NCBI GenBank assembly: GCA_964576465.1 | Contig: CAZNXE010000002.1 | Span: 8,114 to 42,612 of the forward strand | Source of the DNA: an uncultured Planctomycetaceae bacterium | GTDB taxonomy: Bacteria > Planctomycetota > Planctomycetia > Pirellulales > JAEUIK01 | Direction of reading: 5' to 3' | DNA length: 34,499 bases | In this document: in pieces, positions 18 through 29,727 of the stretch | Layout: every line of letters starts with the position of its first letter | How positions within the stretch are numbered: position 1 is the stretch's first letter | Program-made: the position numbers and the translations under genes | Notes under the pieces: model-generated | Database searches by the model: none | Seen by the model: only the letters and a program-made list of their open reading frames with translations | What the model was told of the DNA's origin: nothing

Positions 18-1217
18 TCAGTCGGAACTCTTGATGAACGCCTCGATACGATCGAAGCCGGCTTTGATGTCGTCCATGGCCGCGGCGAATGACATTCGGG
101 CGTAGCCGTCGGTGCCAAACGCCGATCCCATTACGGTCGCCACGTTCTGCTGTTCGAGCAATTCAAGGCACCAAGATGTGTCGTCGTTGACTTGCTTGCC
201 ATTGTAAGAACGCCCGAGGTGTTCCTTGACGTTGATAAAGGCGTAAAACGCTCCGGCCATCTCAGGGCAACTCAGCCCCGGGATTTCTTCGATCCGCTGC
301 TGAACGAACTCACGTCGCTTGGCGAATTCATCTCGCATGCGATCGACACATTCTTGTGGACCCCTCAAGGCAGCCACCGCAGCATACTGACTGATGCTCG
401 AGGCGTTGGAAGTCTCCTGGCTTTGCAACTTCGACATTGCCTTGGCCAACTCCGGCGAACTAAGGGTCCAGCCGATGCGCCAGCCGGTCATCGCGTATGC
501 CTTGCTCACGCCGTTGACAATCACGGTTCGATCTTGCAGCCCGGGGCGCACGGTGGCGAAACAGGTAAAGCGGTGATCTCCGTAGACGAGTCGTTCGTAA
601 ATCTCGTCGGCAATCGCCAGCAGGTCGTGCTCCAAGACAATGTCGGCCAGCAACCCCAACTCCTCAGCCGAATACATGCTGCCAGTCGGATTTGAAGGAG
701 AACAGATGAGCAGGATTTTTGTCTTGTCGGTTACGGCCGCGCGAAGCTGCTCGGGCAAGAGCTTGAAGTCGTTCGACTGTTCGGTCTGCAAGATCACCGG
801 CACGCCGCCGGCAATGCGTACCAACTCCGCATAGCTCACCCAATAGGGGGCGGGAACAATCACTTCATCGCCCGCGTTCAGCGTGGCCGTGAACACGTTA
901 TGCAACGCATGCTTCGCGCCACAAGAGATCACCACCTGCGCGGGACCGTACTCCAGCCCATGTCGCTGATGGCACTGATCGGCGACCGCTTGTCTCAATT
1001 CTGGGATTCCGGGGGCAGCCGTGTAGTGTGTGTGTCCGGCGCTGATCGCCGCGATGCCCGCGGTGCGGATGTGGTCGGGCGTGTCGAAGTCTGGCTCGCC
1101 CAGGGCGAAGTCGTAGACTTTCTTGCCAGCGGCCTTCAACTCTTTGGCCTTGGCACCCATGGCCATGGTGGCCGATGGTTCTAACGCGGCAACACGGTCT
1201 GAAATGAATGAAGTCAC
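18..1217 (-). CDS. aspC: PLP-dependent class I/II aminotransferase (aspartate aminotransferase-like)
   Basis: Motifs GEPDF, YT..PG..ELR, PYWVSY, SPSNPTG, DEIY and SKAYAMTGWRIG (PLP lysine). Start moved to the GTG at 1217 because GAGGGAG lies just upstream. Confidence 0.9.
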   Translation of the reverse strand: MTSFISDRVAALEPSATMAMGAKAKELKAAGKKVYDFALGEPDFDTPDHIRTAGIAAISAGHTHYTAAPGIPELRQAVADQCHQRHGLEYGPAQVVISCGAKHALHNVFTATLNAGDEVIVPAPYWVSYAELVRIAGGVPVILQTEQSNDFKLLPEQLRAAVTDKTKILLICSPSNPTGSMYSAEELGLLADIVLEHDLLAIADEIYERLVYGDHRFTCFATVRPGLQDRTVIVNGVSKAYAMTGWRIGWTLSSPELAKAMSKLQSQETSNASSISQYAAVAALRGPQECVDRMRDEFAKRREFVQQRIEEIPGLSCPEMAGAFYAFINVKEHLGRSYNGKQVNDDTSWCLELLEQQNVATVMGSAFGTDGYARMSFAAAMDDIKAGFDRIEAFIKSSD

Positions 1218-1448
1218 GGAAATCTCCCTCGAAATCATCGAAGAAACTTAACGCCGCCGGTCCTCCGGCCTTCGCTCCGATCACAAGCATGGAGCACCGC
1301 AGGCCAATCCGCGACACAGAAGCAGACAATCATAAAGTGATGAGGGTTCGCTTCCAAGGACCAGCAGCGCCACGGCAAGCCCCGAGGCCACGAAAAAGTG
1401 TCGTGGCGTCTGCTTCGCTGACATTCGACTCTACCTGAGACAGATCTG

Positions 1449-3050
1449 TCAGCCCGACGATGACTCGCCGGCTTCCTCGTCGCCGGAGTTGAAAGAGGCC
1501 AGCAGCCGGCGGCCTTTGTGGATCCAATACGCCTCGGTTGGGCCAAGCGGGCGGCTTGTGGTTCCAGCCCCATACCACGACATGGTCTCTCCGTCGACAA
1601 CCAAGAACCCCGGCTGCCGCGATCGCGTGGCTCGGTAGACTGGAATGCTTTGACCGAAGAACCGGCCGACCATTGCCAACTCGATGTCGTCGGCGACGAG
1701 TTCTTCGCCCGCCATTTCGAGGGTCTCTCGCTCGGTGTCGGAGAGTTGCGACACCTCGTCTTCAGCCAGTTCAGGGTGTTCGGAATGCCAACCGGCGTAA
1801 ATCGCATAAATGTCCGACGGCGCCAGATCTTGCAAGTCGACGGCCAGGCAGTAGGTCGTCGGGCCGACCAGCCCGATTCCAATGAGGGCTCCTTGGGGAA
1901 ACGGATACTCGTACCGTATCAAGAAGCAATCGCGCGGCTGGTCAAAGCCTGGCCAATATTGGTGACAATGATCGATGACTTCGGTGCTCTGCGGTGCAAG
2001 GCCGATCTGCCGTGGTTCGGCCAGCCAACTTGAAAGCTGGGCCTCGGCGCGGGCCATCGGCGTGCGGAATTCCTCTGGCACGTCGTCGAGTTGGTCGAGT
2101 TCTTCCAGGTAAGCCAGTGCCCTCGTACGCGCCGCCGGATCGGCGGCCAGCTCAACTAAGATATCGATACCGCTTTTCTCTCCTAGTCGAGCTAGCGCCG
2201 TGGCGGCTTCTGCTCGCAGGCGGCGATGTGTTAGCTCCAACACGGTGTTCAGCGCGGGGATCGACGACGCATCGCCGATCGAACCGAACGCATCGCACAA
2301 TGCAACGATGACCGACGCGCTCTCGCCAATCAGACGCTGTAGCTCTTCCTGCGTACTGGCGTACTTGCCCGGCTGTTCCTCGACGAGCCGCAATCGATGA
2401 GCCATCGCCTTCAAGAGGCCCGTCAAGTGTTCCAATCGCGCGGCCGCCGGGTGAACATCGACCATTTGACGATGCCACAGGTGGTTTGCTAGATCGAGGA
2501 CGATGGCCGCCAATACCGGCCGATCCAGCGCGTCGAACAACCTCGGGTACAGCGTGTCGACATCAAGTCGCGTGGCTTGAAATAAAGGTGCACAAACAGC
2601 GTCAAGCTGCCGGGCTTCCACGGGTGGATCGACAACAAGCCTCTCGGCAAGCAGGCCGAGCGAAGTGGAATCGGCGGCTGACGCTAGCAATCGCAAGACC
2701 TGATATCGGGCGGCAGTTTCCGGCCCCAGTCGATCATAAAGTTCTGCTAGAAACTCGATCGTTCGACGCGAAAGCGGCTCGACACTTGGTTCGCTGGACG
2801 GACGAGCCTTGCCGTAGCGATGCCCGAGACTCCCGAACAGGGCCTCAAGCAATTGGGAATCTAGTTCGACATCGTCGCTCATCTCGGGCGCGGGCAACCG
2901 GTTCAAGATCGCATGGATCAGGTCGCGAACTTCTTCGTCCGTCGCGTATTTCCAGAGGTCGACCGTGTCATCGGCTACCTCGGCGACGTTCGCCGGGTCT
3001 CTTTTTTCTCGCACTAAACTGTTCAGAAACCGCTCGATCGATGGGGACAT
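1449..3050 (-). CDS. HEAT/PBS-lyase-repeat-containing hypothetical protein
   Basis: Long ORF with helical repeats (ALCDAFGSIGDASSIPAL, LRAEAATALARLG, RALAYLEEL). ATG at 3050 chosen; the ORF track extends to 3074. Confidence 0.7.
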   Translation of the reverse strand: MSPSIERFLNSLVREKRDPANVAEVADDTVDLWKYATDEEVRDLIHAILNRLPAPEMSDDVELDSQLLEALFGSLGHRYGKARPSSEPSVEPLSRRTIEFLAELYDRLGPETAARYQVLRLLASAADSTSLGLLAERLVVDPPVEARQLDAVCAPLFQATRLDVDTLYPRLFDALDRPVLAAIVLDLANHLWHRQMVDVHPAAARLEHLTGLLKAMAHRLRLVEEQPGKYASTQEELQRLIGESASVIVALCDAFGSIGDASSIPALNTVLELTHRRLRAEAATALARLGEKSGIDILVELAADPAARTRALAYLEELDQLDDVPEEFRTPMARAEAQLSSWLAEPRQIGLAPQSTEVIDHCHQYWPGFDQPRDCFLIRYEYPFPQGALIGIGLVGPTTYCLAVDLQDLAPSDIYAIYAGWHSEHPELAEDEVSQLSDTERETLEMAGEELVADDIELAMVGRFFGQSIPVYRATRSRQPGFLVVDGETMSWYGAGTTSRPLGPTEAYWIHKGRRLLASFNSGDEEAGESSSG

Positions 3051-3499
3051 GACTTGAATTATAACTCCGCGCACGGTGGTCGTCGCCCAAGGTACTCAAC
3101 TCGACGAAGAGGTTGCCATGCGCGATTCGTGGGATGTCGTTGATCCAATGGTAGCGCCTTCAGTGGAGGTCTGCGTGGCTTCGATCGGCGACGGCGACGA
3201 GAGGATATCTGGCACTCAGGAAACTAGGGTAAGAATTCGCCTTGACGTAAGACGAGCGAAGATGCTTCAATGCGCGCACAGGATGCATCCAAGTTGGTTG
3301 TCTCCTACGGTTCTCGGTCGCCTTCACCTAGTCGGTGACAGAGGGAGCATCTGAAAAACAAGGAGTTCGTTAAGCATTAGCGTGGGCCGCGCAAGCTTGA
3401 TCGCGCGGCACCGACATTCGATGGCGTCTGCCCGCGACGGGTACCAGCGGGACTGATCCATCAGCAATAACAGGTACCCAGCTTTCAGGAGCCACGGAA

Positions 3500-13413: not shown

Positions 13414-15738
13414 CTATTCTTTCTCGGGAGCGACCAGCTTGGCCAACGGTCGCAGCACTTCGACGGCTGCCGGCGGGAACGCCGCTGCCTCCTTGCTCCA
13501 AAAGCTGACGACCGCCGCCTGGCCATCAATGGTGATCGGCACATGCAGGCTACTGCTTACAGCCGTCGACATCGTCTTCAGATCTCCACCGCCGGCAGTT
13601 GAAAGGGTGTCGTACACGGTTTCGTTGCCACCGGTGGCAATCTTGGCCAGCGTCGATTTTTTGGTCGCATATTCGAGGTCCGTCCGACCCAACGGATAGT
13701 CGAGCACGATCGGTTGTGCAACCTGAAGGAAACGCAGCGTGGGGCCGTCGACGACGCTGACGCCGATGCGGTCTACCTGCGGTACAATGCGTGCAACGCG
13801 CTGCAAGAACTTGTCGGCGTCCTCTTGCGATTCAAGAAATCTACCGGCGGCGCGCCGGGCCAGCCCCGTGATTCGCGGCGGCTTTTGCTTCGCTTTCTCA
13901 AGGAATCGGGCCGTACGTGTCTTGGCGTTCTTATCGAATTCGGTCGAATCGATATCGTCACTCTCGGAGTACCAGCCGATCATCATCTCTTCCCACGTTT
14001 GATCGCCCCAATAGACATCCGATGTTGGGTCGGGGTTTGCCAGGTTGTCTTCCGAATTGTCGAAGTGTGCCAGGCAATAGAGTTGCGAGCCCGCGGGCGC
14101 CAATTTTGGCTCGGCCAACATGTAGATCGTTTGCCAGTTGAAGTCGTATTGCGGTACGTCGAGCAGGGTTTCAACGCGGCCATCGGGATAACGAAGGTCG
14201 TAGCGGAACGCCTTGCCACGCAGATGCATGTGCGGGGCAAACGTCAATAGCAACGTGTCTTTGTGGAATGTCTTGGTCGCCTCGACCGGATGATTGTTCT
14301 CGCCAGCGGGAATCTTGAACCCAAAGTTGATCGCCATGTTCATGCGCACATCGTGCTTCACTTCCGAGGCATCGCGGAACTTAAAGCCAACTGCCGTGCG
14401 ATCGGTTGTCTCGTGGCCGTTTGCCGTGTAGTGCATCTGGAAAATGAGCTTGGTGCCAGCCTTAAGATGTGTGGCCATGCCGTCGGCAAATGTCCAGGGT
14501 GGCGTTCCCGGTGCGGCACCCGCGATCAACTCGATGCCACCTTTCCCAGGATTAAACTCGCCATCGCCACGGCCCTCTTCCGCACTCCGGAAGTCGGGTT
14601 CGGGGGTGCCCGGCGGGAGCGAGAACACGAAGATGTGATGCACCACAGAGCGGTTCCCCAGCAAACACTCCGAACCGCACATCCAACGGTCTTCTTTCCA
14701 GCCGGGATCCACGGTGAAGTATTGATAGTCGATCGCCCCGTCGGCGGGCACGGTGTAGGGTTCGTCGCTCATGTAATAGACCGCATCGGGCTCGCCCATT
14801 TGCCAACCCTCGGGATACTCGATCGGCTCGGGAAGTTCCGCCGGGTCGCCTTGGGGGGCGCCGTTGCGAACCCAGGCGTAGATCGTCTCCTTGTCTTCGT
14901 TGGGCATGCTGCGGTCGTTGAGAAAGTGGCCGTACTTCGGATCCGCGTGCCATGGAGGCATCCGCTGCAAGCGTACGACTTCCTCGATCATTTCGGCCCA
15001 ACCTACAATTTCGTCATACTCGGTTAGCGAGAAGGGAGCGATTTGCCCTGGGCGGTGGCACTCGACGCAGTGAGTTTGCAGAATACGTGCGATCTGGTTC
15101 GTGTAGGTGATCTCGCTGTTGAGGTTCGGCTCGCGAATTCGCCCAATCAGGCAGCCCGGGGCGTCGGTCGTCGACGGTTCCATGGTCTCGCCCGCAAGGA
15201 CCGCCTCGATCGATTCGGCCAAATAGCGGCGGCGGACATCGGTCTTGGCATAGCCGGTGCTTGGCCCGAGGCCATACTGATCGTCGACGCGACCTCGATA
15301 GCGGATGACGCGCTGCGCGTCGAGCACGAACACTTCTGGTGTTCGCAGGGCGGCAAACTGGTCGGCCACTACGTTGCCGGTGTCTTTTAGAAGCGGAAAC
15401 TTCACGCCATGGATCCGCGCGAAGTGGGCCAGCTCGGTAACCGAATCTTGACGATTCGAATACACGCCCAGGAACGTTACATCCCGAGCAGCGAATTCGT
15501 CAGCGAGTTTTTGCAATCGTGGGCCATAAAGTTTGGCCAACGGGCATTCGGTGCCCAGAAAGGCCACGACCACGCATGGGCTAGAAGCGTATTCCTCCAG
15601 CGTGTGTTCGCGTCCGCGGAAGTCCTGCATCGCAAATCCATCGATCTGTTGCCCGATGGAACTCGCCGGATCGATCTCAGCCGCAACCGTGGGCATCGCT
15701 ATGGCCATGACAACTAGGATGGGTGTTACGTATCGCAT
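13414..15738 (-). CDS. Exported redoxin + cytochrome c + copper type II (PHM/DBH-like) monooxygenase-fold protein with a C-terminal GAF-like domain
   Basis: Signal peptide; redoxin FLGTECPLA...RTPEVFVLD...YRGRVDDQY; CVECH heme-c motif; VVHH, QMHY, PHMHLRG and EEMM copper-ligand-like motifs. ATG 15738 follows GAGG. Confidence 0.8.
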   Translation of the reverse strand: MRYVTPILVVMAIAMPTVAAEIDPASSIGQQIDGFAMQDFRGREHTLEEYASSPCVVVAFLGTECPLAKLYGPRLQKLADEFAARDVTFLGVYSNRQDSVTELAHFARIHGVKFPLLKDTGNVVADQFAALRTPEVFVLDAQRVIRYRGRVDDQYGLGPSTGYAKTDVRRRYLAESIEAVLAGETMEPSTTDAPGCLIGRIREPNLNSEITYTNQIARILQTHCVECHRPGQIAPFSLTEYDEIVGWAEMIEEVVRLQRMPPWHADPKYGHFLNDRSMPNEDKETIYAWVRNGAPQGDPAELPEPIEYPEGWQMGEPDAVYYMSDEPYTVPADGAIDYQYFTVDPGWKEDRWMCGSECLLGNRSVVHHIFVFSLPPGTPEPDFRSAEEGRGDGEFNPGKGGIELIAGAAPGTPPWTFADGMATHLKAGTKLIFQMHYTANGHETTDRTAVGFKFRDASEVKHDVRMNMAINFGFKIPAGENNHPVEATKTFHKDTLLLTFAPHMHLRGKAFRYDLRYPDGRVETLLDVPQYDFNWQTIYMLAEPKLAPAGSQLYCLAHFDNSEDNLANPDPTSDVYWGDQTWEEMMIGWYSESDDIDSTEFDKNAKTRTARFLEKAKQKPPRITGLARRAAGRFLESQEDADKFLQRVARIVPQVDRIGVSVVDGPTLRFLQVAQPIVLDYPLGRTDLEYATKKSTLAKIATGGNETVYDTLSTAGGGDLKTMSTAVSSSLHVPITIDGQAAVVSFWSKEAAAFPPAAVEVLRPLAKLVAPEKE

Positions 15739-15835
15739 CGCATTTCCTCGCAGGTTTGGGCCCCGCAACAGTGGCAATCCCAGGTTGCCCTGGTAGTTGG
15801 TTCGGTTGTTTTGAAGGGATCGTTTCAATGCACTC

Positions 15836-16495
15836 TCAGCATGCTTGTGGTGAGATGCCCAAGTAACTCAAAAAACAGCGCACGAGTTCGCCCGGCAGTC
15901 GGGCATCGTGCAGTTCGATGATTTCGACCTCGCTCACGCGAAACAGGGTGAGGCGATCTAGCGTGCTGAGGATCATCTGCAATCCGATTTGGATGGCCAA
16001 CGTGGGGTCGGGATGTTCGATCGTCTCGGCACGCGCCAAGATCAGATCACGTAGGCGACCGACCAGATGTGCATTCAACGGAAGCCACCGTTTGCAGAAC
16101 TCATCATCGACACAGCCTCGCACGATGAACGCGCGAATCAGGCCGGTCTTCTGGCGGTAGACTTCGACCAGAAAGGGAATCGTCTCGCTAAGAATCTCGG
16201 CGATCGAACTCGCTTCCCATCGCACGGGATCGAGCACGGCGTCGGTCGTTGCCATGGCCTCATCGGTAAAGCGATCGTGGAGGCAACCCAGCAGGGCTTC
16301 TTTTTCCTTGAAGCGACCATAGAAGGCACCGACGGAGGTTTCCGAACGGCGAACAATCTCGGCAACGGTCGCGCCCTCGAAACCCTTCTCGGCAATGACT
16401 TCCTCAGCCGCATCGAGCATTCGCTCAAGGCTCATCTGGCTACGCGATTGAAGCGGCGGCTTGACCCAACCGACGCGCCCGACAACTTGGCTCAT
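15836..16495 (-). CDS. TetR/AcrR family transcriptional regulator
   Basis: N-terminal HTH (MLDAAEEVIAEKGFEGATVAEIVRRSETSVGAFYGRFKEKEALL). Confidence 0.92.
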   Translation of the reverse strand: MSQVVGRVGWVKPPLQSRSQMSLERMLDAAEEVIAEKGFEGATVAEIVRRSETSVGAFYGRFKEKEALLGCLHDRFTDEAMATTDAVLDPVRWEASSIAEILSETIPFLVEVYRQKTGLIRAFIVRGCVDDEFCKRWLPLNAHLVGRLRDLILARAETIEHPDPTLAIQIGLQMILSTLDRLTLFRVSEVEIIELHDARLPGELVRCFLSYLGISPQAC

Positions 16496-16566
16496 CCCAC
16501 ACTCCCGATCTTCAATCAATGCCCGCCGGCGAGCAGATTCCCCCGGCAGAGATTCAAGCTGATAGC

Positions 16567-16741: not shown

Positions 16742-17662
16742 CTATGACGATCGCATGCGTCGAGAACGCCACAAGGCCAAAGGCAAGAAGGCTAGCGCGA
16801 AGCTGGCGAGGGTCAGCGTTCCGGGTTCAGGTACGGGTATGGTTGTTCTGGCGACTAACACACCGGTAAAGCCGATACTCACGGGACGGATGAGCCCGGG
16901 GCTGGGGAACCCATCATCCGAACCATATAGAGCCTCCACACTTACCGGTATGACTATCTCAAAATCGCCGCCGCCGAGGGAAATTAGGGTTCCGTCAATA
17001 TCAGAGTCGGATGTGTTATCCTCACCGCTCAAATCAAGGAAGCTAAAATCTCCGAATATATTGGATTCGAACGTAGCTCCAGTAACCACGGTCCCCCCCG
17101 TGGCTCGAATTGGGAAACGACTCGAAAATGTCATCGTTTCGCCAACTGGAAGGTTTGGCGAAATCGGCAGCGAGATTCCTTGCAGGTTTGTTTCAAATAT
17201 ACGAAACAGGAAGGAAAAATCGAAAATGGCCGTCGTGACTGTGACTGGTGGTCCTCCCAGGATGTCAGGTCCGATAGCGATTTCGTGACCATAGTTGGCT
17301 GGACCAGAAACAATAGACGTTGGATCCGTGCCCTCTGCCCTCCAAGTACCGCTGTTCGCGGCGACGATGTCGCTGCTAATTCCAGAGGAGATCATTCCGC
17401 TGGCGAGGTCTAAGTCGGCGTCAAACGTCCCACTGTAACTGGTCACCAACGAGCCAGGCCCCTGTCCAAAGGAGAGGATGTCAAAAAATGGAATACTACC
17501 GGGAATAGCGACATCTCCGATGGGAGAGAGATCTATTGTCGATAAAGTCAGTTGGCTGCGAGATGGGTCGAGCGTGAAGGTCAAGGGCACAGCCTGGGCT
17601 GATGTGGCTGCTGCAATCAATCCAAAAGCGAGTGTGTAGCCAAAGCATTTGTATCGCGTCAT
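16742..17662 (-). CDS. PEP-CTERM sorting-domain protein
   Basis: Signal peptide ending ATSAQA. C-terminal VPEP + hydrophobic helix + RSRRMR. ATG 17662 follows GAGGGTGG; alternative start at 17695. Confidence 0.88.
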   Translation of the reverse strand: MTRYKCFGYTLAFGLIAAATSAQAVPLTFTLDPSRSQLTLSTIDLSPIGDVAIPGSIPFFDILSFGQGPGSLVTSYSGTFDADLDLASGMISSGISSDIVAANSGTWRAEGTDPTSIVSGPANYGHEIAIGPDILGGPPVTVTTAIFDFSFLFRIFETNLQGISLPISPNLPVGETMTFSSRFPIRATGGTVVTGATFESNIFGDFSFLDLSGEDNTSDSDIDGTLISLGGGDFEIVIPVSVEALYGSDDGFPSPGLIRPVSIGFTGVLVARTTIPVPEPGTLTLASFALAFLPLALWRSRRMRSS

Positions 17663-17778
17663 GTTTGCCACCCTCTGGGCTTGTCCTGTTGCCATGATTC
17701 TGGAACTAAGATTGTCTTCGAGGCCAAGGAAAAGACCTTCTCAAGGTACTGCTCCTGGGCTGTTCCATATTGCTCATC

Positions 17779-18050: not shown

Positions 18051-20387
18051 CTAATCAGCAACTGTCCTGAGCTCAAACGCCGGCTTCTGGGACATTTCGA
18101 TCGCTGCGTGTCGATAGAACGGGTAGACGCTCCACTCGACGCAGGTCAGTAGATCGGGGCGCCCGTCGTCGTCCATGTCGGCGACCCAGGGATGAGGGCC
18201 GTGTGCGGTGACTTTGATGGGTTCGCCATAACAGCAAAGCGTGCGAGGATTGGCAAACACCGGCTCGCTGCGCGTACCCACATTCCTCAACAGGTAGATA
18301 CTGCCGTCGGCAGCGCGGGTACCGGCGCAACTGTAGATCAGGTCGATTCGCCCGTCACCGTCCCAATCGGTGGACCGAAATGATTCAGTCCAATGGCTCG
18401 TTCGGCCGACGATCGAATCGTCGATCTCGCGCCCGTCGGCCAATCGTAGCGGAGGCCCTTTGCGGAGCCGCAACTGTTGCTGATCGTCACGATATCGCAC
18501 GAAGAGCGTTGCTTTTCGCGTATGCCCGTCGTGCGTGACCAAATCGATGAGACCGTCGTCGGTAAAGTCGGCGAAGCAGGCGCCCGTACGCCAAAAGAAA
18601 GGGCGTTCCGCTTCGTAGGGATAAGGTTGGTTCGGTTCGTCGGGATCACTTGAGCGGCGTGCCGAGAGTGCTCGCATTTCATCGGAGTCGGGATACCCGT
18701 CGCAAATGACTTGGCGTCGTCGACCGAAGCGCGGCCGCTGGTGGCTTCCCTCGTTCTTGTACCAAAAGATGCGATTGGTCTCGTTGGGCAACATCAAATC
18801 GGCAAGGCCGTCGCTGTCCCAGTCGACGAACACCGGCAGTGGGTAGCCCATATTGTGCCAGTGCTTGCCACCGAGAACCTCGTCACGAAGTATGCGGATC
18901 GGCCCCTGTTCATCTTCGATTCGCTGCGCGAGCGAGAACTGAGGTCGACGGTTGGTGCCACGATTGAGCACGATGCGCGGCCAACCGTACCCGCCACCAA
19001 CGAGGAGATCCCAAACATGGTCTCCATTCCAATCGCAAACACATGGCCACGCCTGATCGCTCAATGCCAACACGGCGGATTTAGATCTGGGCGTTCCGAC
19101 TCGGCGAAAACGAGGTTGATCGGTCGTGAGTGGCTCTTGTTGGTAATACTCGACATGCTGCCCCATTCCGTACCCCACGAGCAAGCCGACGTGGTGATCA
19201 TCACGAACGGCAGCCAGTGAAGTACACCAGGTGCGGTCGATGCCTTGTAGTGGTTGCTTGGGGCCGAAACGGGGAGGATCACCCCCAAGATTGCGTTGCC
19301 ATGCGACGCTCGCGGCGCGGGTATCTGTTGCGGGTCCGTCGACAAGGCAAATGGCATCGAGTTGGCCGTCGCCGTCGAGATCGGCGAAGCATGCTTCACG
19401 CCCGACGTCCAAGTCGACAGGTGGAGCTAAGCGGATGGGCCAACCGTCTGCGTTTGTATTGCGGGCGTAGGCTCCTGATACCACCAGATCGACCGCACCG
19501 TCCCGGTTGAGATCGACAGCGCGACAGGGATTCCAACCGCTGGAAGGTCGCTCCACACTGCCGGCAGCTTCAAAAATCGGGAAGCCTGTCGGCTCACGTC
19601 GGCCACGGTTGAGATAGAACTGCAATGTCTTGGATCCACTCGGAGAAAAAACCAAATCGGGCAGGTCGTCGCCGTTGAGGTCTCCTACGGCGGCGTGCAT
19701 GTACGTGCCGGTGAAATGATTCGGCGGGCCGTCGTTTTCCGCCGCCGCGGCCCAACGCAAACGGCTCAGATCGCCGAACTCCAGTGGGCCCGCGTTCGCC
19801 AGACCTGGAAAAGCTATGACTCCGTCCCATGGCCAGCCGGGGCGATAAGCATAGTTCCAGCACCCGATCAGGTCTCGCAAGCCGTCGCCGTTCAAATCGA
19901 GTAACCCGCTGAGGTAGATGGGGGCAATCGGTCGCGGTTCACCGGCGTTGTATCGCAGCAGGTCGCCCACGCCGATCAACGGCGTGTGTTCTTGCGGTAG
20001 CAGCGGCGGGCGCTCGCGAACCGTATTGAAGCGAATCTCGTAATCGCGTCGCTCAGGATTCTCGATGACCCACTGCAAGTGACCGCGATCGGAATAGGCA
20101 AAATCCTCGGTTCTCGCCGAAGCCACTGGCGCATGCGATGTGGTATCGAAGACTTCGATCGAATTCGGGTCGACGACGCCCTTCCAATTCTCCGCGGCAA
20201 CGATCTTTGCGAAGTCGATCTCAACGTCCAACGGAACATTTGCCATCGGGAGATCGGAAGTGATCGTTAAGTGCAGTCGATGAGGATCGCCTCCGGATGA
20301 TGGAGCAACCCTGCCACACAACACGACCGCCAACAATCCAACAACGGCGTAGGGTAACGAAGGGCATCGCGCGAGGAAGGGATACAT
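18051..20387 (-). CDS. Exported FG-GAP/VCBS-repeat (beta-propeller-like) protein
   Basis: Multiple DxNxDGxxDL motifs (DLNGDGLRDLI, DLNGDDLPDLV, DLDGDGQLDAI, DWDSDGLADL, DWDGDGRIDLI, DMDDDGRPDLL) and a hydrophobic N-terminus. Confidence 0.85.
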   Translation of the reverse strand: MYPFLARCPSLPYAVVGLLAVVLCGRVAPSSGGDPHRLHLTITSDLPMANVPLDVEIDFAKIVAAENWKGVVDPNSIEVFDTTSHAPVASARTEDFAYSDRGHLQWVIENPERRDYEIRFNTVRERPPLLPQEHTPLIGVGDLLRYNAGEPRPIAPIYLSGLLDLNGDGLRDLIGCWNYAYRPGWPWDGVIAFPGLANAGPLEFGDLSRLRWAAAAENDGPPNHFTGTYMHAAVGDLNGDDLPDLVFSPSGSKTLQFYLNRGRREPTGFPIFEAAGSVERPSSGWNPCRAVDLNRDGAVDLVVSGAYARNTNADGWPIRLAPPVDLDVGREACFADLDGDGQLDAICLVDGPATDTRAASVAWQRNLGGDPPRFGPKQPLQGIDRTWCTSLAAVRDDHHVGLLVGYGMGQHVEYYQQEPLTTDQPRFRRVGTPRSKSAVLALSDQAWPCVCDWNGDHVWDLLVGGGYGWPRIVLNRGTNRRPQFSLAQRIEDEQGPIRILRDEVLGGKHWHNMGYPLPVFVDWDSDGLADLMLPNETNRIFWYKNEGSHQRPRFGRRRQVICDGYPDSDEMRALSARRSSDPDEPNQPYPYEAERPFFWRTGACFADFTDDGLIDLVTHDGHTRKATLFVRYRDDQQQLRLRKGPPLRLADGREIDDSIVGRTSHWTESFRSTDWDGDGRIDLIYSCAGTRAADGSIYLLRNVGTRSEPVFANPRTLCCYGEPIKVTAHGPHPWVADMDDDGRPDLLTCVEWSVYPFYRHAAIEMSQKPAFELRTVAD

Positions 20388-20502
20388 GAATTGGTCGCCA
20401 GGGGGTGAGATAGATAATCTTCCCCAGCGTACAAGCAGCTCAACTGCATTGCGAATCGAAGGGCGACGAGCATGGCCGCGGATCGCCTATGAAATATTCA
20501 GC

Positions 20503-21585
20503 CTAGAGTTTGCCGAGTTCCGAGATGATTTTCTTGGGCGATGGCCGATCGGCGTAGTTGCGCCCGCGCTTGACATAGCGGAGGATGCCTTCGCGATCGA
20601 TGATGAACGTGCCGGGGCGGTTGCTGACTTCGGTGTGAATCCGCATCTGGAAGGCGACCCCGTAGGCAGCGCTCACGGTGTATGTAGGATCGGTCAGCAA
20701 GGGATAGTGGACATCGTCTTCATCGAAGCCGACCTCCTTGAGCAAGAACTTGGCCGACCACGACTCGTGTGGGTCGACGGCTAAAAGCACGGCATCAAGT
20801 TTCACGATCGCCTCGAGCTGCTCGCGCAACTGCGCGAGTTGTCGGTGACAGACGGGTCATGTATCGCCATAGATAAAGACCAGCACCACGGCCTGCTGAC
20901 CGCGAAAATCACTCAGCGAGATCTCTTGTCCGTCGATGGTCTTCAAGGTGAAATCGGGGGCAGGTTCACCAACTTGTGCCGTAGCGATGTTCGCCGGATC
21001 CCAATGGGCGAACCGCTCGACAACCGCCTGATCGATGGGATGGTCTTGGCGGTCGATCGCGTACGCAATGTGTTTCTTTACATCGCCGTTCGACTCCGTG
21101 GCGGCCAGCGAACTCAACTGCTCGGCGATGGAAGGGTCGCCGCGCATGCCCAACGCATCGACAGCGTAAAGCCGAACGGCCGCGTCAGGGTCATCGGTGG
21201 CTGCCGCCCACAGTGGTTCCGTGGGAACCAGCGGGGCCAAGTAACTGAGCGCCTGCGCCGCCAGCACGCGCTCGTGCGATTGGCCCGACTGAAGTGTCTC
21301 GACTAGCGGGGCAACAGAAGTCTGGCCCGCGGCAACAAGTCCATGCAACACCCGCATCCGCAATTGCCAGTCACGGTCGTCGAGGGGCCGCATGAATTTT
21401 CGTTTTCCTGGAACTCCCCCGCCATCCCACTCGGCTTCATTCCAGCCTTCCGTGAAGCGACCGAGCAGCCCCTCGGGCGAGGTTGTTGGTTCGGCTGCCC
21501 CGAGGGTGGCGATGCCGACGAATGATCCAAGAAATGCCGCAAGAGCGACATGCAACCCACGGATGATTGAGCATCGAGAAAGCAT
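20503..21585 (-). CDS. Probable selenoprotein: signal peptide + HEAT repeats + AhpC/TSA-type redoxin with a U-P-V-C motif (in-frame UGA at 20859-20857)
   Basis: The ORF-track pieces 20857..21768 and 20503..20829 are in the same frame. Read-through gives ...APDFTLKTIDGQEISLSDFRGQQAVVLVFIYGDT-U-PVCHRQLAQLREQ...PGTFIIDREGILRY, a complete redoxin fold. 360 aa with the UGA at codon 243. GGGAG RBS precedes ATG 21585. Confidence 0.85.
20821..20838 (-). promoter_or_regulatory. Candidate bacterial SECIS element
   Basis: mRNA CUCGCGC-AGUU-GCGCGAG: a 7-bp stem with G at loop position 2 followed by U. The loop starts 25 nt 3' of the UGA. Confidence 0.7.
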
Positions 21586-21593
21586 AAGGCTCC

Positions 21594-22106
21594 CTACTCC
21601 AAGTGGCTTGCCGATGGCAGCGTGCCGAGCACGGCCAACAGTTGTGGGGTCTCTACTTGACGGATGAGGCCACGTGCGATGAGTTGGTCCTGCTGTTGGC
21701 ATTCGGGGCATGTTGCGTCGTTGCATGCAACCGCGTTGGATAGGACAGGATCTCGCTGTGCTACCCAACCCATCATTTCTGCTTTAGGACGGCACATGTC
21801 GCATTGGGCCAAATGTAGCCGAACTTTTTCCGACGTTTCTTCGTCAAGTTGGTCGTCAAGGAAATGTGGCAGTGCTGCCTGCACTTCGGTACAAGAAATA
21901 CCGCCGTAGTTGTGTTGAGTCTCGCCGGTGAGGCTTGGCAAGGCTTGCCAAATGGTGACTGCCAGCACGAGCGTGAGCGCCGACACTATTCCACCTCGAA
22001 CGACGGACTGTTTACGTCTGCTCGCCTGAATGCGACCGACCATCCGGCTCAACTCACCGGGTGGACATGCGTCCCAGTCGTCATTTTTTGAAGCTTTCGC
22101 GTTCAT
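21594..22106 (-). CDS. Single-pass membrane protein with a zf-HC2 (ZAS-like) domain after the TM helix
   Basis: Basic RRKQSVVR, then a TM helix (GIVSALTLVLAVTIW), then ISCTEV...HLAQCDMC and a further CNDATCPEC. Its stop abuts the RBS of the redoxin gene. Confidence 0.8.
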   Translation of the reverse strand: MNAKASKNDDWDACPPGELSRMVGRIQASRRKQSVVRGGIVSALTLVLAVTIWQALPSLTGETQHNYGGISCTEVQAALPHFLDDQLDEETSEKVRLHLAQCDMCRPKAEMMGWVAQRDPVLSNAVACNDATCPECQQQDQLIARGLIRQVETPQLLAVLGTLPSASHLE

Positions 22107-22272: not shown

Positions 22273-23025
22273 CTATGTGGATCGTTGCCCCCCCAGGCTG
22301 GGTATTTTGGCGGGTGGGGGTGGTTCGGCGGGGAGTTCCGCTTGCACACTCTTGGCCATTCGGTCGATGTCGGAGAGCACGATTTTCCGACGCGCAAGCT
22401 GGACCATGCCTTCGTTCTGAAGTTCACCGAGAGCGACCGTCACCGATTCTCGCGTACTTCCAATCAGGTTGGCCAGGTCTTGATGCGAGAGTTTGATGGC
22501 TAGTTGGATTCCTTGGGGGACCGGTTGACCATATTTCTCCGACAATTCAAGCAATGCATGCACGAGCCGCTCGCGGTTCGAGCGAAACATGAGGTTCTTT
22601 AGCCGTCGTTCGATCCGCCGCCGACGCAATCCAAGCAGTTGTGTCACCTCCATGGCGACATGCGAATGACGCTGCATCAGTCGTTGAACCGCATTGTGAG
22701 AGATCAAGACGACGTCCGAGGTTTCAATCGCCGTGGCGAATTCTTCCCGGTCTCCGTTGGCATCGAGCAGGGCTAATTCACCAAAAATCTCCCCTGGCTC
22801 AATGAACGCGATGATCGATTCCTTGCCATCGGACGAAATATTGCAAATCTTGATTCGACCGGAAACCAACAGCAGCACCGCGTTTGCTTGGTCGGCTGGC
22901 AAATAGACGAGCGATTTGCGCGGAAAGCTGCGCATACGAGCCGACGACTCGAGTTCGGTCAATTCGTCGGGGGTGAGCTGCTCGAACAGGCTGCACCGCT
23001 TCAGATGCCAAGTCTTCTCAGACAT
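22273..23025 (-). CDS. Crp/Fnr family transcriptional regulator
   Basis: cNMP-binding fold (LLVSGRIKI, PGEIFGELAL) and HTH LSHQDLANLIGSTRESVTVALGEL. ATG 23025 follows GAGGT. Confidence 0.93.
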   Translation of the reverse strand: MSEKTWHLKRCSLFEQLTPDELTELESSARMRSFPRKSLVYLPADQANAVLLLVSGRIKICNISSDGKESIIAFIEPGEIFGELALLDANGDREEFATAIETSDVVLISHNAVQRLMQRHSHVAMEVTQLLGLRRRRIERRLKNLMFRSNRERLVHALLELSEKYGQPVPQGIQLAIKLSHQDLANLIGSTRESVTVALGELQNEGMVQLARRKIVLSDIDRMAKSVQAELPAEPPPPAKIPSLGGQRST

Positions 23026-23136
23026 ACCTCTACCGAGGGCCTTTGAAAGAATCAGGCGTGAGAATGGGCAAGATGGCGTATTCTCCGGGCTAGCGTGACG
23101 CCAGGGAGAACCTACCAATCTTACGCGACGATTCGG

Positions 23137-28662: not shown

Positions 28663-29727
28663 TTGCTGAGCCCGTCGGACTTTCATGATCTGGTGAGTGG
28701 CCGTCGACGAGGATCCGTCTCCTCGACGCTCCGTGCCGTGCTTCGAGTTGCCGAGGTGCCCTACACAGCAGCCGTCGTATGGCGAAACCGTCGCTACGAC
28801 CGTGGGCGCGCCAAGAGCTTCGCGGTCGAGGTGCCCGTGATCAGCGTCGGCAACCTCTCGCTCGGCGGCACGGGCAAGACACCGCTGGTCGAATGGATCG
28901 CCCAAAGGTTGCGCGAGCAACAAGTTCGCGTGGCGATCATCAGTCGAGGATATGGGGCCGAGGACGGCAAGCGGAATGACGAAGCGTTGCAGCTCGAGCA
29001 GTCGCTCCCCGAGGTGCCCCATTTGCAGAATCGCGATCGTGTGGCAGCCGCTCGCGTGGCGATTGATGAGCTGGAGATGCAGTGCCTTGTGCTGGACGAC
29101 GGCTTTCAACATCGGCGGTTGCGGCGCGACTTGGACATCGTACTGTTGGACGCCTGTGAGCCGTTTGGGCACGACCATGTCTTCCCCCGTGGAACGCTCC
29201 GCGAACCGCCCGGTGGTCTCCGCAGGGCCGACGTGGTCATGCTCTCGCGAGCCGACCTGATTGACTCGCAGCAGCGCGAAGCAATTCGTCATCGCGTGCG
29301 CCAACTGAATCCCCAAGCCGACTGGCTCGAAGCCTGCCACGAGCCCCGCTGCCTGTTAGCATCCAGCGGTGCCCAACAACCGATCGACACACTAACCGGG
29401 CAACGCATCGCCGCCTTCTGCGGCATCGGCAACCCCCAAGGCTTCCGCCACACGCTGACCGCAACCGGAGTGCATACCAAAGCATTCCGCGAGTTCCCCG
29501 ACCATCACCAATACACCCGCGACGATATAGCAGACCTAACCCGCTGGGCAGAAGACGCAAACGTCGCTGCCGTGCTCTGCACCCACAAAGACCTCGTGAA
29601 AATCGGCATCGATCAGCTAGGGAGTCGACCACTATGGGCGTTGACCGTCGGATTGAAGATCACGGTTGGCGAGGAGTTGTTGGAGGAACGATTGCAGCAG
29701 ATTGTGGCGTCGATCACTGCGGTTTGA
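28663..29727 (+). CDS. lpxK: Tetraacyldisaccharide 4'-kinase
   Basis: VISVGNLSLGGTGKTP, ISRGYG, DE, LDDGFQH, P.GTLREP, FCGIGNP, FPDHH and CTHKDLVK. Confidence 0.95.
   Translation: MLSPSDFHDLVSGRRRGSVSSTLRAVLRVAEVPYTAAVVWRNRRYDRGRAKSFAVEVPVISVGNLSLGGTGKTPLVEWIAQRLREQQVRVAIISRGYGAEDGKRNDEALQLEQSLPEVPHLQNRDRVAAARVAIDELEMQCLVLDDGFQHRRLRRDLDIVLLDACEPFGHDHVFPRGTLREPPGGLRRADVVMLSRADLIDSQQREAIRHRVRQLNPQADWLEACHEPRCLLASSGAQQPIDTLTGQRIAAFCGIGNPQGFRHTLTATGVHTKAFREFPDHHQYTRDDIADLTRWAEDANVAAVLCTHKDLVKIGIDQLGSRPLWALTVGLKITVGEELLEERLQQIVASITAV

Follow-up and report, generated by a model that had tools for sequence, protein, structure and literature searches.

The DNA stretch analysed here (the window) comprises 34,499 nucleotides (nt) of contig CAZNXE010000002.1 (positions 8,114–42,612, forward strand) from assembly GCA_964576465.1 of an uncultured Planctomycetaceae bacterium, whose GTDB lineage is Bacteria; Planctomycetota; Planctomycetia; Pirellulales; JAEUIK01. 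The source genome is a draft of 462 contigs with a completeness of 88.8%, and the sequencing runs that cover the window nearly completely carry the label seawater metagenome; no RNA run is listed among those containing it. On the minus strand, the window contains a gene whose frame is interrupted by a single in-frame TGA. Judging by the genomic evidence, this codon is almost certainly read as selenocysteine (Sec, U), and the product would be a genuine selenoprotein of 360 amino acids (aa) with the following features.

21585..20503, minus strand: predicted selenoprotein gene; ATG at 21585, TAG at 20505–20503; 360 aa with TGA translated as U (Sec243)
20859..20857, minus strand (TCA on the plus strand): UGA codon 243, the predicted Sec codon; first position of U-P-V-C, next base C (UGA-C)
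20848..20850, minus strand: Cys246, predicted partner of Sec243, aligned with the peroxidatic Cys position of AhpE
20838..20821, minus strand: candidate selenocysteine insertion sequence (SECIS) hairpin CUCGCGC-AGUU-GCGCGAG, inside the L-A-Q-L-R-E codons (residues 250–255)
21493..21585, minus strand: predicted Sec-type (general secretory) signal peptide, residues 1–31, assigned by eye and from hydropathy
21004..21372, minus strand: HEAT-like helical repeat domain, residues ~72–194, from Pfam HEAT_2, AlphaFold2 (AF2) and PDB profile matches
20572..20973, minus strand: AhpC/TSA (peroxiredoxin-fold) redoxin domain PF00578, residues 205–338, with the Sec codon inside

The minus-strand reading around the TGA is V-F-I-Y-G-D-T-[TGA]-P-V-C-H-R-Q-L-A-Q-L-R-E, which places codon 243 within a YGDT-U-PVCH motif. 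Under translation table 11 the locus is split into two open reading frames (ORFs), one of 303 aa that terminates at the TGA and one of 108 aa that begins at a downstream TTG. P0002, a database fragment of 94% identity, begins at the selenoprotein's own Met, and the orthologues align to the selenoprotein along its full length. The AhpC-TSA profile is matched across the TGA from position 1 to position 124 of 124 (97.5 bits against a cut-off of 26; E-value, 6.9e-28); such an open, homologous continuation is therefore no chance event. The string GGC GAT ACA TGA CCC GTC TGT, from which the original prediction of a selenoprotein had started with no strand named, was located on the minus strand, and the position of Sec243, the length of 360 aa and the continuation of the frame to a complete fold all proved to be right.

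Orthologues, selenocysteine machinery and the candidate SECIS hairpin

Orthologues were sought in whole genomes, in six frames and with stops read through. In a sample of 401 genomes of the order, the source genome included, 28 had a match at an E-value up to 1e-22. Nineteen of the 401 (the source again counted) contain a gene of complete or nearly complete length that is 39–60% identical and has a TGA in frame, and the TGA falls into the identical column in all 19: 18 of them read YGDT-U-PVCH-x-QLAQLR, and L054 reads YGDG-U-PVCL. A phylum-wide sample of 401 genomes added three Sec forms from outside the order with TGA at the same column (L145, L146 and L147), as well as one additional Cys form. 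In total, TGA stands at the Sec column in 22 genomes, i.e., the source and 21 others. The 117 codons downstream of the TGA show 45–60% identity among the orthologues, and the named relatives are Planctomycetota metagenome-assembled genomes. Two further loci fit no motif pattern and were left unclassified: L061, a C-terminal piece of 75 aa, and L062, which has 2 TGA and is 45% identical across residues 188–341.

Cysteine counterparts of the gene occur as well. The 50%-identical orthologue L064 (the same sequence as P0004) has TGT at the Sec column, and eight places in the order hold a 28–31%-identical HEAT plus redoxin gene with Cys at this column in all eight cases (FADW-C-PVCH). A pattern scan across phyla, which could find Cys codons only, returned 183 Cys-form loci over many phyla, including Rhodothermota, Verrucomicrobiota, Bacteroidota and haloarchaea. 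These FADW-C-PVCH proteins share HEAT_2 and AhpC-TSA with the Sec forms, as well as an invariant C/U-P-V-C-H motif, invariant histidines and an invariant D-R-P; they differ in being 28–35% identical, in having Cys for Sec, in the lack of the hairpin and in a 13-residue insertion, and they form a separate deep clade. A quick maximum-likelihood tree (midpoint root) resolved two clades, each with a Shimodaira–Hasegawa-like approximate likelihood ratio test (SH-aLRT) support of 100. The first consists of 20 Sec rows and, nested within these, four Cys rows, which represent three distinct Cys forms (L064 = P0004, P0005 and P0006); the Cys in P0005 and P0006 is known from the database protein, and the codon at the DNA level is known for P0004/L064. 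The second clade is all-Cys and cross-phylum.

The TGA itself was recovered repeatedly. Over 20649–20990, TGA included, a second sample of the same study yielded a contig of identical sequence, and two contigs of a relative from a different study retain the TGA next to a synonymous T>G change at 20860 in the neighbouring codon.

The source genome encodes selA (545 bits; cut-off 268) and selB (392 bits; cut-off 242) adjacent to each other on one contig, selD (293 bits; cut-off 125) and a selC gene, i.e., tRNA-Sec, which was detected with Rfam (70 bits; cut-off 47) and called by ARAGORN as tRNA-SeC(tca). In the window, the ORFs 18–1238(-), 15836–16519(-) and 28663–29727(+), assigned by Pfam to an aminotransferase, a TetR regulator and LpxK, respectively, terminate in TGA, and the Pfam matches of the aminotransferase and LpxK extend nearly to the C-termini; UGA is therefore an ordinary stop elsewhere in the window. 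The checks named in the original prediction thus came out in its favour: every one of selA, selB, selC and selD is present above curated cut-offs, Cys/TGA alternation at the column was found (TGA in 22 genomes, TGT in L064, and Cys in the sister clade), and a base-call error, named there as a refutation, is excluded by the second-sample contig and the relatives, all of which keep the TGA. Its statement that UGA is not globally reassigned, made from the same three genes, was likewise upheld.

Two side observations concern the selenium-related genes of this genome. The selD gene on contig 3 (L011:1390–3732, minus) is a 780-aa ORF with a ~430-residue N-terminal domain resembling pyridine-nucleotide disulfide oxidoreductase; its SelD active-site region reads C-A-G-C-G-G-K, and it is therefore a Cys form. 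SelD fusions with an N-terminal oxidoreductase-like domain have been described previously. A second peroxiredoxin (Prx)-like selenoprotein candidate lies on contig 237 (L144:1041–1799, minus). It has an N-terminus with multiple transmembrane (TM) segments followed by AhpC-TSA (E-value, 2e-30), and it is membrane-anchored, with the motif FW-U-PFC and with TGA serving as the true stop as well as the internal codon. Its hairpin, ACUGCA-AGGUU-UGCAGU, lies 17 nt past the UGA. An orthologue of this candidate is contained in L029, and further TGA-bearing paralogue matches were seen.

The candidate SECIS hairpin of the source gene has a 7-bp stem that begins 18 nt past the UGA and a 4-nt loop that begins 25 nt past it, with a local free energy of −13.1 kcal/mol; in the loop AGUU, G is in the second position and U follows it. 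According to a 2026 review (PMC13188914), bacterial SECIS (bSECIS) elements are defined by an apical loop of 3–9 nt with G in the first two loop positions, a stem of 4–16 bp, a UGA-to-loop distance of 16–37 nt and a minimum free energy at or below −7.5 kcal/mol, and the source hairpin agrees with all four of these published criteria. A local hairpin is found in all 19 order-level Sec forms, 18 of which range from −9.2 to −13.1 kcal/mol, while L045 reaches just −7.2 kcal/mol.

The strongest evidence for the hairpin is its frozen synonymous sites. In 18 orthologues, the codon entropy at L250, A251, Q252, L253 and R254 is 0.31, 0, 0, 0 and 0.65 bits, respectively; at the other 34 of the 39 invariant degenerate columns of the 18 core orthologues it is 0.76–2.29 bits, and the other invariant Leu columns use 3–6 different codons. 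All 108 cells of the six inner pairs (18 sequences) show pairing; the outermost pair forms in only 4 of 18 sequences. Changes in the inner pairs comprise U-A to U-G in six sequences, G-C to G-U in three, and a C-G to G-C swap in L045. More distant variants were also seen: L145 keeps the AGUU loop with a stem G-C changed to A-U, and L054, L146 and L147 have another 7-bp stem, CAAGCUG/CAGCUUG, with loops AGUUC or CGUGU, 23 nt past the UGA. No such hairpin was found in the Cys forms, the TGT orthologue L064 included.

Domain architecture and active site

The first 31 residues are arranged as expected for a Sec-type signal peptide, with R4 and R9 in the n-region, a hydrophobic core at residues ~10–25 and G-A-A before EPTT. 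Kyte-Doolittle means over 11 residues amount to 1.4–2.35 for window starts at residues 5–22 and fall below 0 from residue 27. Neither a twin-arginine motif nor a lipobox is present in residues 1–31. The N-termini of the orthologues have the same layout and end in A-x-A-like sites, and AF2 places a low-confidence helix at residues 5–27. It is likely that the selenoprotein is exported by this signal peptide, which would be cleaved probably after G-A-A.

Pfam HEAT_2 (PF13646) matches residues 123–199 (41.5 bits against a cut-off of 27.7; E-value, 1.6e-10). The N-terminal part of the family profile matches alphaRep / HEAT-repeat PDB chains, and its C-terminal part matches AhpE, Prx, ResA and 'thioredoxin family' chains. 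The AF2 model, built from a 27-row alignment, has a mean predicted local distance difference test score (pLDDT) of 85.8 and a predicted template-modelling score (pTM) of 0.83; it consists of a helical repeat and a thioredoxin-type domain, and the pLDDT of the paired helices at 72–194 is above 90. The best Foldseek matches are Bcp1, AhpE and Prx1, with a TM-score, normalised by the target, of up to 0.86 (0.81–0.86 for the BCP/PrxQ and AhpE peroxiredoxins, PDB 3drn and 1xvw), and the phmmer match to AhpE has an E-value of 5e-14.

In the gap-free phmmer alignment, FIYGDTcPVCh stands opposite FFPLAFTGICq of AhpE. The catalytic positions of a Prx are the Pro, the Thr, the peroxidatic Cys and the Arg. 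U243 falls on the Prx Thr (T-x-x-C), C246 on the peroxidatic Cys, and R323 on the Arg that precedes the F-x-I-D strand; the Cys246 column is invariant in the orthologue alignment A2, from which L027 and L053 were excluded. The Prx active-site motif P-x3-T/S-x2-C with Arg is thus kept in its Cys and Arg, which are shared with BCP/PrxQ and AhpE, and altered at the other two positions, the Pro being replaced by Tyr239 and the Thr by Sec243. Given the fold and this alignment, the predicted product can be described as a Prx-fold protein whose U-x-x-C pair is thioredoxin-like. In addition, the Sec and the Cys clades both keep H273 and H317 without exception and H247 almost without exception.

Like TlpA, ResA and DsbE, the protein is a predicted exported thioredoxin-fold protein with an x-x-C redox pair and a Pro before a T-F-x-I-D strand, but the matches are weak (ResA, 44.8 bits, cut-off 170; DsbE, 29.7 bits, cut-off 123), the fold is nearer to Prx than to ResA, and TlpA/ResA/DsbE lack the HEAT domain. 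The best NCBIfam match, NF040769 (SelL-related redox protein), is under its cut-off (59.6 bits against 120), and the deiodinase-family model NF038285 gives 31.5 bits against 250; in both families, as in the source protein, Sec/Cys directly follows the first beta-strand of a Prx-like fold, whereas the motif is T-U-P-V-C here and T-U-P-P-F in a deiodinase-like neighbour of some orthologues. SCO1/SenC (PF02630) scored 19.3 bits (E-value, 0.0012) against a Pfam cut-off of 22.8, and its CxxxC is absent, since only two residues intervene here.

Proposed mechanism and alternative explanations

The explanation that very probably accounts best for the locus as a whole combines Sec insertion, export, and a HEAT domain joined to a redoxin with a U-x-x-C centre. 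SelB with Sec-tRNA(Sec) would recognise the hairpin past UGA243 and insert Sec, so that the ribosome completes the 360-aa protein. The N-terminal signal peptide would direct the protein across the cytoplasmic membrane, and the mature form would consist of the HEAT-repeat domain and the peroxiredoxin-fold redoxin. Sec243-x-x-Cys246 would then cycle between the selenol/thiol and selenenylsulfide states, while the HEAT domain may hold a partner or substrate. The most likely function, as predicted from these features, is that of a periplasmic thiol:disulfide oxidoreductase or peroxide reductase.

Several observations weigh against this explanation. The redox function was deduced from fold and motif, and the signal peptide was called by eye and from hydropathy. 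The selenoprotein is under the cut-off of every NCBIfam model, with the Prx models giving 49 of 270 (PrxU), 41 of 140 (BCP), 33 of 272 (AhpC) and 28 of 260 (PrxQ) bits. Neither a plain Prx mechanism nor that of TlpA accounts for the conserved H273, H317 and H247. With respect to the hairpin, covariation is weak (one pair changed on both sides, which was equalled by 51 of 500 shuffles), RNAalifold with 6 sequences gave zero compensatory pairs, the fold of a 73-nt piece did not differ significantly from shuffles (z, −1.24), and an Rfam scan of 20400–21700 at E-values up to 10 returned three chance-level matches and no SECIS family; the argument therefore rests on the conservation of synonymous sites and on the distant variants. 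Finally, L027, from a 72%-complete draft (genome G017), has a second in-frame TGA at the invariant Arg106 column. It is probably a CGA-to-TGA change or a sequence error, and the L027 copy may therefore be broken or mis-sequenced.

A broken Cys-redoxin gene, in which the TGA arose by nonsense mutation or reflects a fault of assembly or base calling, would be in keeping with the two fragments obtained under table 11, with the fragmented, incomplete state of the source genome and with the extra TGA of L027, which looks like damage. This explanation has a practically negligible probability: TGA stands at the same column in 21 other genomes from several families, the downstream sequence is under purifying selection, and 115 of the best 120 of the 141 database relatives end exactly before the Sec column. 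The second-sample contig is identical, the relative keeps the TGA beside a synonymous change, and a divergence of 45–60% among the TGA-bearing loci excludes copies of one assembly error. Read-through of the UGA as Cys or Trp by near-cognate tRNAs, or by local reassignment, is also very improbable. UGA followed by C is a leaky stop context, and this is the context found here, but three Pfam-confirmed genes of the window stop at TGA, the contig 237 candidate uses TGA both internally and as its stop, the full Sec machinery is present, and the bSECIS-type element strictly co-occurs with TGA and is lost in the TGT orthologue.

Other alternatives accept a real selenoprotein and differ in its task. 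A main role in peroxide reduction, as a periplasmic peroxiredoxin-like peroxidase and not in protein disulfide exchange, is possible, though rather unlikely. C246 and R323 at the Prx peroxidatic Cys and Arg positions, the nearest folds (Bcp, AhpE and Prx1) and the Crp/Fnr-type regulator found as a conserved neighbour speak for it; the replacement of Pro and Thr of P-x3-T-x2-C by Tyr and Sec, together with scores far under the cut-offs of all Prx equivalog models, speaks against it. The binding of a soft metal or metalloid (Cu, Hg or As) by Sec-x-x-Cys and His, in the manner of a Sco-type chaperone, is an unlikely explanation, which nevertheless stays alive as the simple redox model leaves the conserved His unexplained. 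It could draw on these histidines in both clades, on the weak SCO1/SenC match, on ArsM-like methyltransferase genes that immediately precede the orthologue in L046 and L051 (L052 has a look-alike ORF), and on a mercuric-reductase-like flavoprotein, recognised by eye from the sequence start, beside 10 of 80 Cys-form loci. However, the SCO1 match is under the Pfam cut-off, two residues separate the chalcogens as compared to three in Sco, peroxiredoxins make up all of the top fold matches, the Prx positions of the Arg and the peroxidatic Cys are retained, and metal-related neighbours occur in a minority of the loci.

Neighbouring genes, database entries and known selenoproteins

Two genes lie upstream of the predicted selenoprotein gene on the same strand.

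21594..22106, minus strand: zf-HC2 membrane protein, 170 aa; Pfam zf-HC2, E-value 1.7e-7; upstream of the selenoprotein gene
22273..23118, minus strand: Crp/Fnr-family regulator; Pfam cNMP_binding and HTH_Crp_2; upstream of the zf-HC2/selenoprotein pair

The stop of the zf-HC2 gene is separated by 8 nt from the selenoprotein ATG, with GGAG in between. From the N-terminus, the zf-HC2 protein has a conserved W..CPPGEL, an Arg-rich stretch, one TM segment and the zf-HC2 domain, which is of the zinc-binding anti-sigma (ZAS) type (C...H-x3-C-x2-C) with invariant C72, H98, C102 and C105. By the positive-inside rule, the zinc finger is predicted to face outward. The best NCBIfam match of the protein is RsrA, a redox-sensing anti-sigma factor, at 28 bits and under the cut-off of 62.5. 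A zf-HC2 homologue is found directly upstream in 7 other Sec loci, and the Crp/Fnr regulator lies beyond it in 6 other loci (49–63% identity); the flanks extend over just 1.5 kb, and these counts are therefore lower bounds. It is conceivable, albeit quite unlikely, that the selenoprotein works together with the upstream membrane protein as a selenium-dependent pair for redox signalling outside the cytoplasm, in which the HEAT domain would dock the outward ZAS finger and the Sec-Cys pair would set its thiol state, the signal passing via the TM segment and W..CPPGEL to transcription with Crp/Fnr in the circuit. If true, this would be a new kind of anti-sigma-like sensor with inverted topology, serviced by a dedicated selenoprotein. 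The conserved pairing with a predicted outward-facing zinc-finger membrane protein offers a testable lead to the function of the class. For the Cys forms, clustering of the ORFs at 80 loci gave no widely shared neighbour; the top clusters were overlapping frames of the gene itself, and the best real cluster was a flavoprotein disulfide reductase-like gene (10 of 80 loci).

The gene is systematically misannotated. Among the best 120 of the 141 database relatives (E-values up to 1e-10), the 115 that stop do so exactly one residue before the Sec column, and these listed entries therefore lack the redoxin domain. The remaining five comprise three with Cys read-through, one with Ser (P0015) and one that is aberrant. 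Most of the listed relatives are nameless, and the few names given are 'hypothetical protein' or 'HEAT repeat protein'. The earlier expectation that standard annotation would break the gene into fragments is borne out by these truncated entries and by the two pieces under table 11. If a family model made an exception for Sec, it would mend over 100 entries in one step. Some database relatives are further fusions of this module: P0015 has Ser at the Sec column, followed by a second, thioredoxin-like CxxC stretch and a DUF3179 domain that is cut at its own likely Sec site, and it is called '(seleno)protein' on account of the DUF3179 domain. P0083 has an N-terminal DUF5694-like domain (Pfam), P0107 an N-terminal region of similar sequence, and P0088 another N-terminal extension; all of them end at YGDT.

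According to two reviews (PMC9312934 and PMC13188914), a pfam00578 selenoprotein class with UxxC/UxxU is already listed; the class is defined by domain and motif (PMC9312934), and most functions of such selenoproteins are predicted only. Sec machinery and candidate selenoproteins were reported in planctomycetes in 2016 (PMC4807772). Judged by domain and motif, the predicted protein is a member of this UxxC class, sharing with the Prx-like UxxC selenoproteins the PF00578 domain, the U-x-x-C with Sec in N-terminal position and a function known from prediction. It differs from that class by a redoxin placed behind a ~130-residue HEAT domain and a predicted signal peptide, and the source family forms its own clade with the YGDT-U-PVCH motif and conserved His; it would represent a distinct exported HEAT-fused subfamily.

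Full-text searches brought up no relevant paper that ties a selenoprotein to HEAT repeats; the candidate list of PMC4807772 may already include a member. Searched by term, PMC9312934, PMC13188914 and a 2022 preprint on new selenoprotein families gave no mention of HEAT, nor of Planctomycetes in this context, and the two reviews gave none of a signal peptide. The original prediction had called the signal peptide and the HEAT fusion unusual. The combination of HEAT and redoxin as such is not rare, given the 183 Cys-form loci. The HEAT fusion, the signal peptide and the conserved neighbourhood of Crp and the zinc-finger membrane protein appear to be new.

With the predicted protein, the Prx-like UxxC selenoproteins gain an exported architecture of two domains. 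Marine Pirellulales-like planctomycetes seem to carry several such genes, with a second one in the source genome and a deiodinase-like one in tandem in relatives. With its Sec forms, the Cys forms nested among these, a single Ser form and three variants of the SECIS, the clade constitutes a natural experiment on the gain and loss of UGA/SECIS pairs within one gene.

Additional genes were observed near the gene or its orthologues. In L049 (781–1482, minus) and L050 (2580–3269, plus), a deiodinase-family selenoprotein gene lies directly downstream of the orthologue, in tandem; its product is exported, scores 218.6 bits with NF038285 (cut-off 250), and has the motif FGSYT-U-PPF, with a 7-bp hairpin and the loop GGU. 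The ArsM-like methyltransferase genes upstream of the orthologue in L046 and L051 score 344–354 bits with NF040538 (cut-off 500), the resemblance of the ORF in L052 was judged by appearance, and a radical-SAM-like ORF lies downstream in L046; some family members may be linked to arsenic metabolism. L024 and L048 contain, by eye, a small exported thioredoxin-like ORF with C-H-Y-C after the orthologue. In the window, the 804-aa protein encoded at 13414–15828 (-) has an N-terminal AhpC-TSA domain and a weak match to a haem-binding domain, and its gene adjoins the TetR gene. In the orthologous locus L023, this TetR and AhpC pair directly follows the selenoprotein gene; in the window, an FG-GAP gene (18051–20387) and the ORF 16742–17695 separate the pair from the selenoprotein gene. 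A second HEAT_2 protein (541 aa), in which a redoxin domain was not detected, is encoded in the window at 1449–3074 (-) and ends with a TGA stop.

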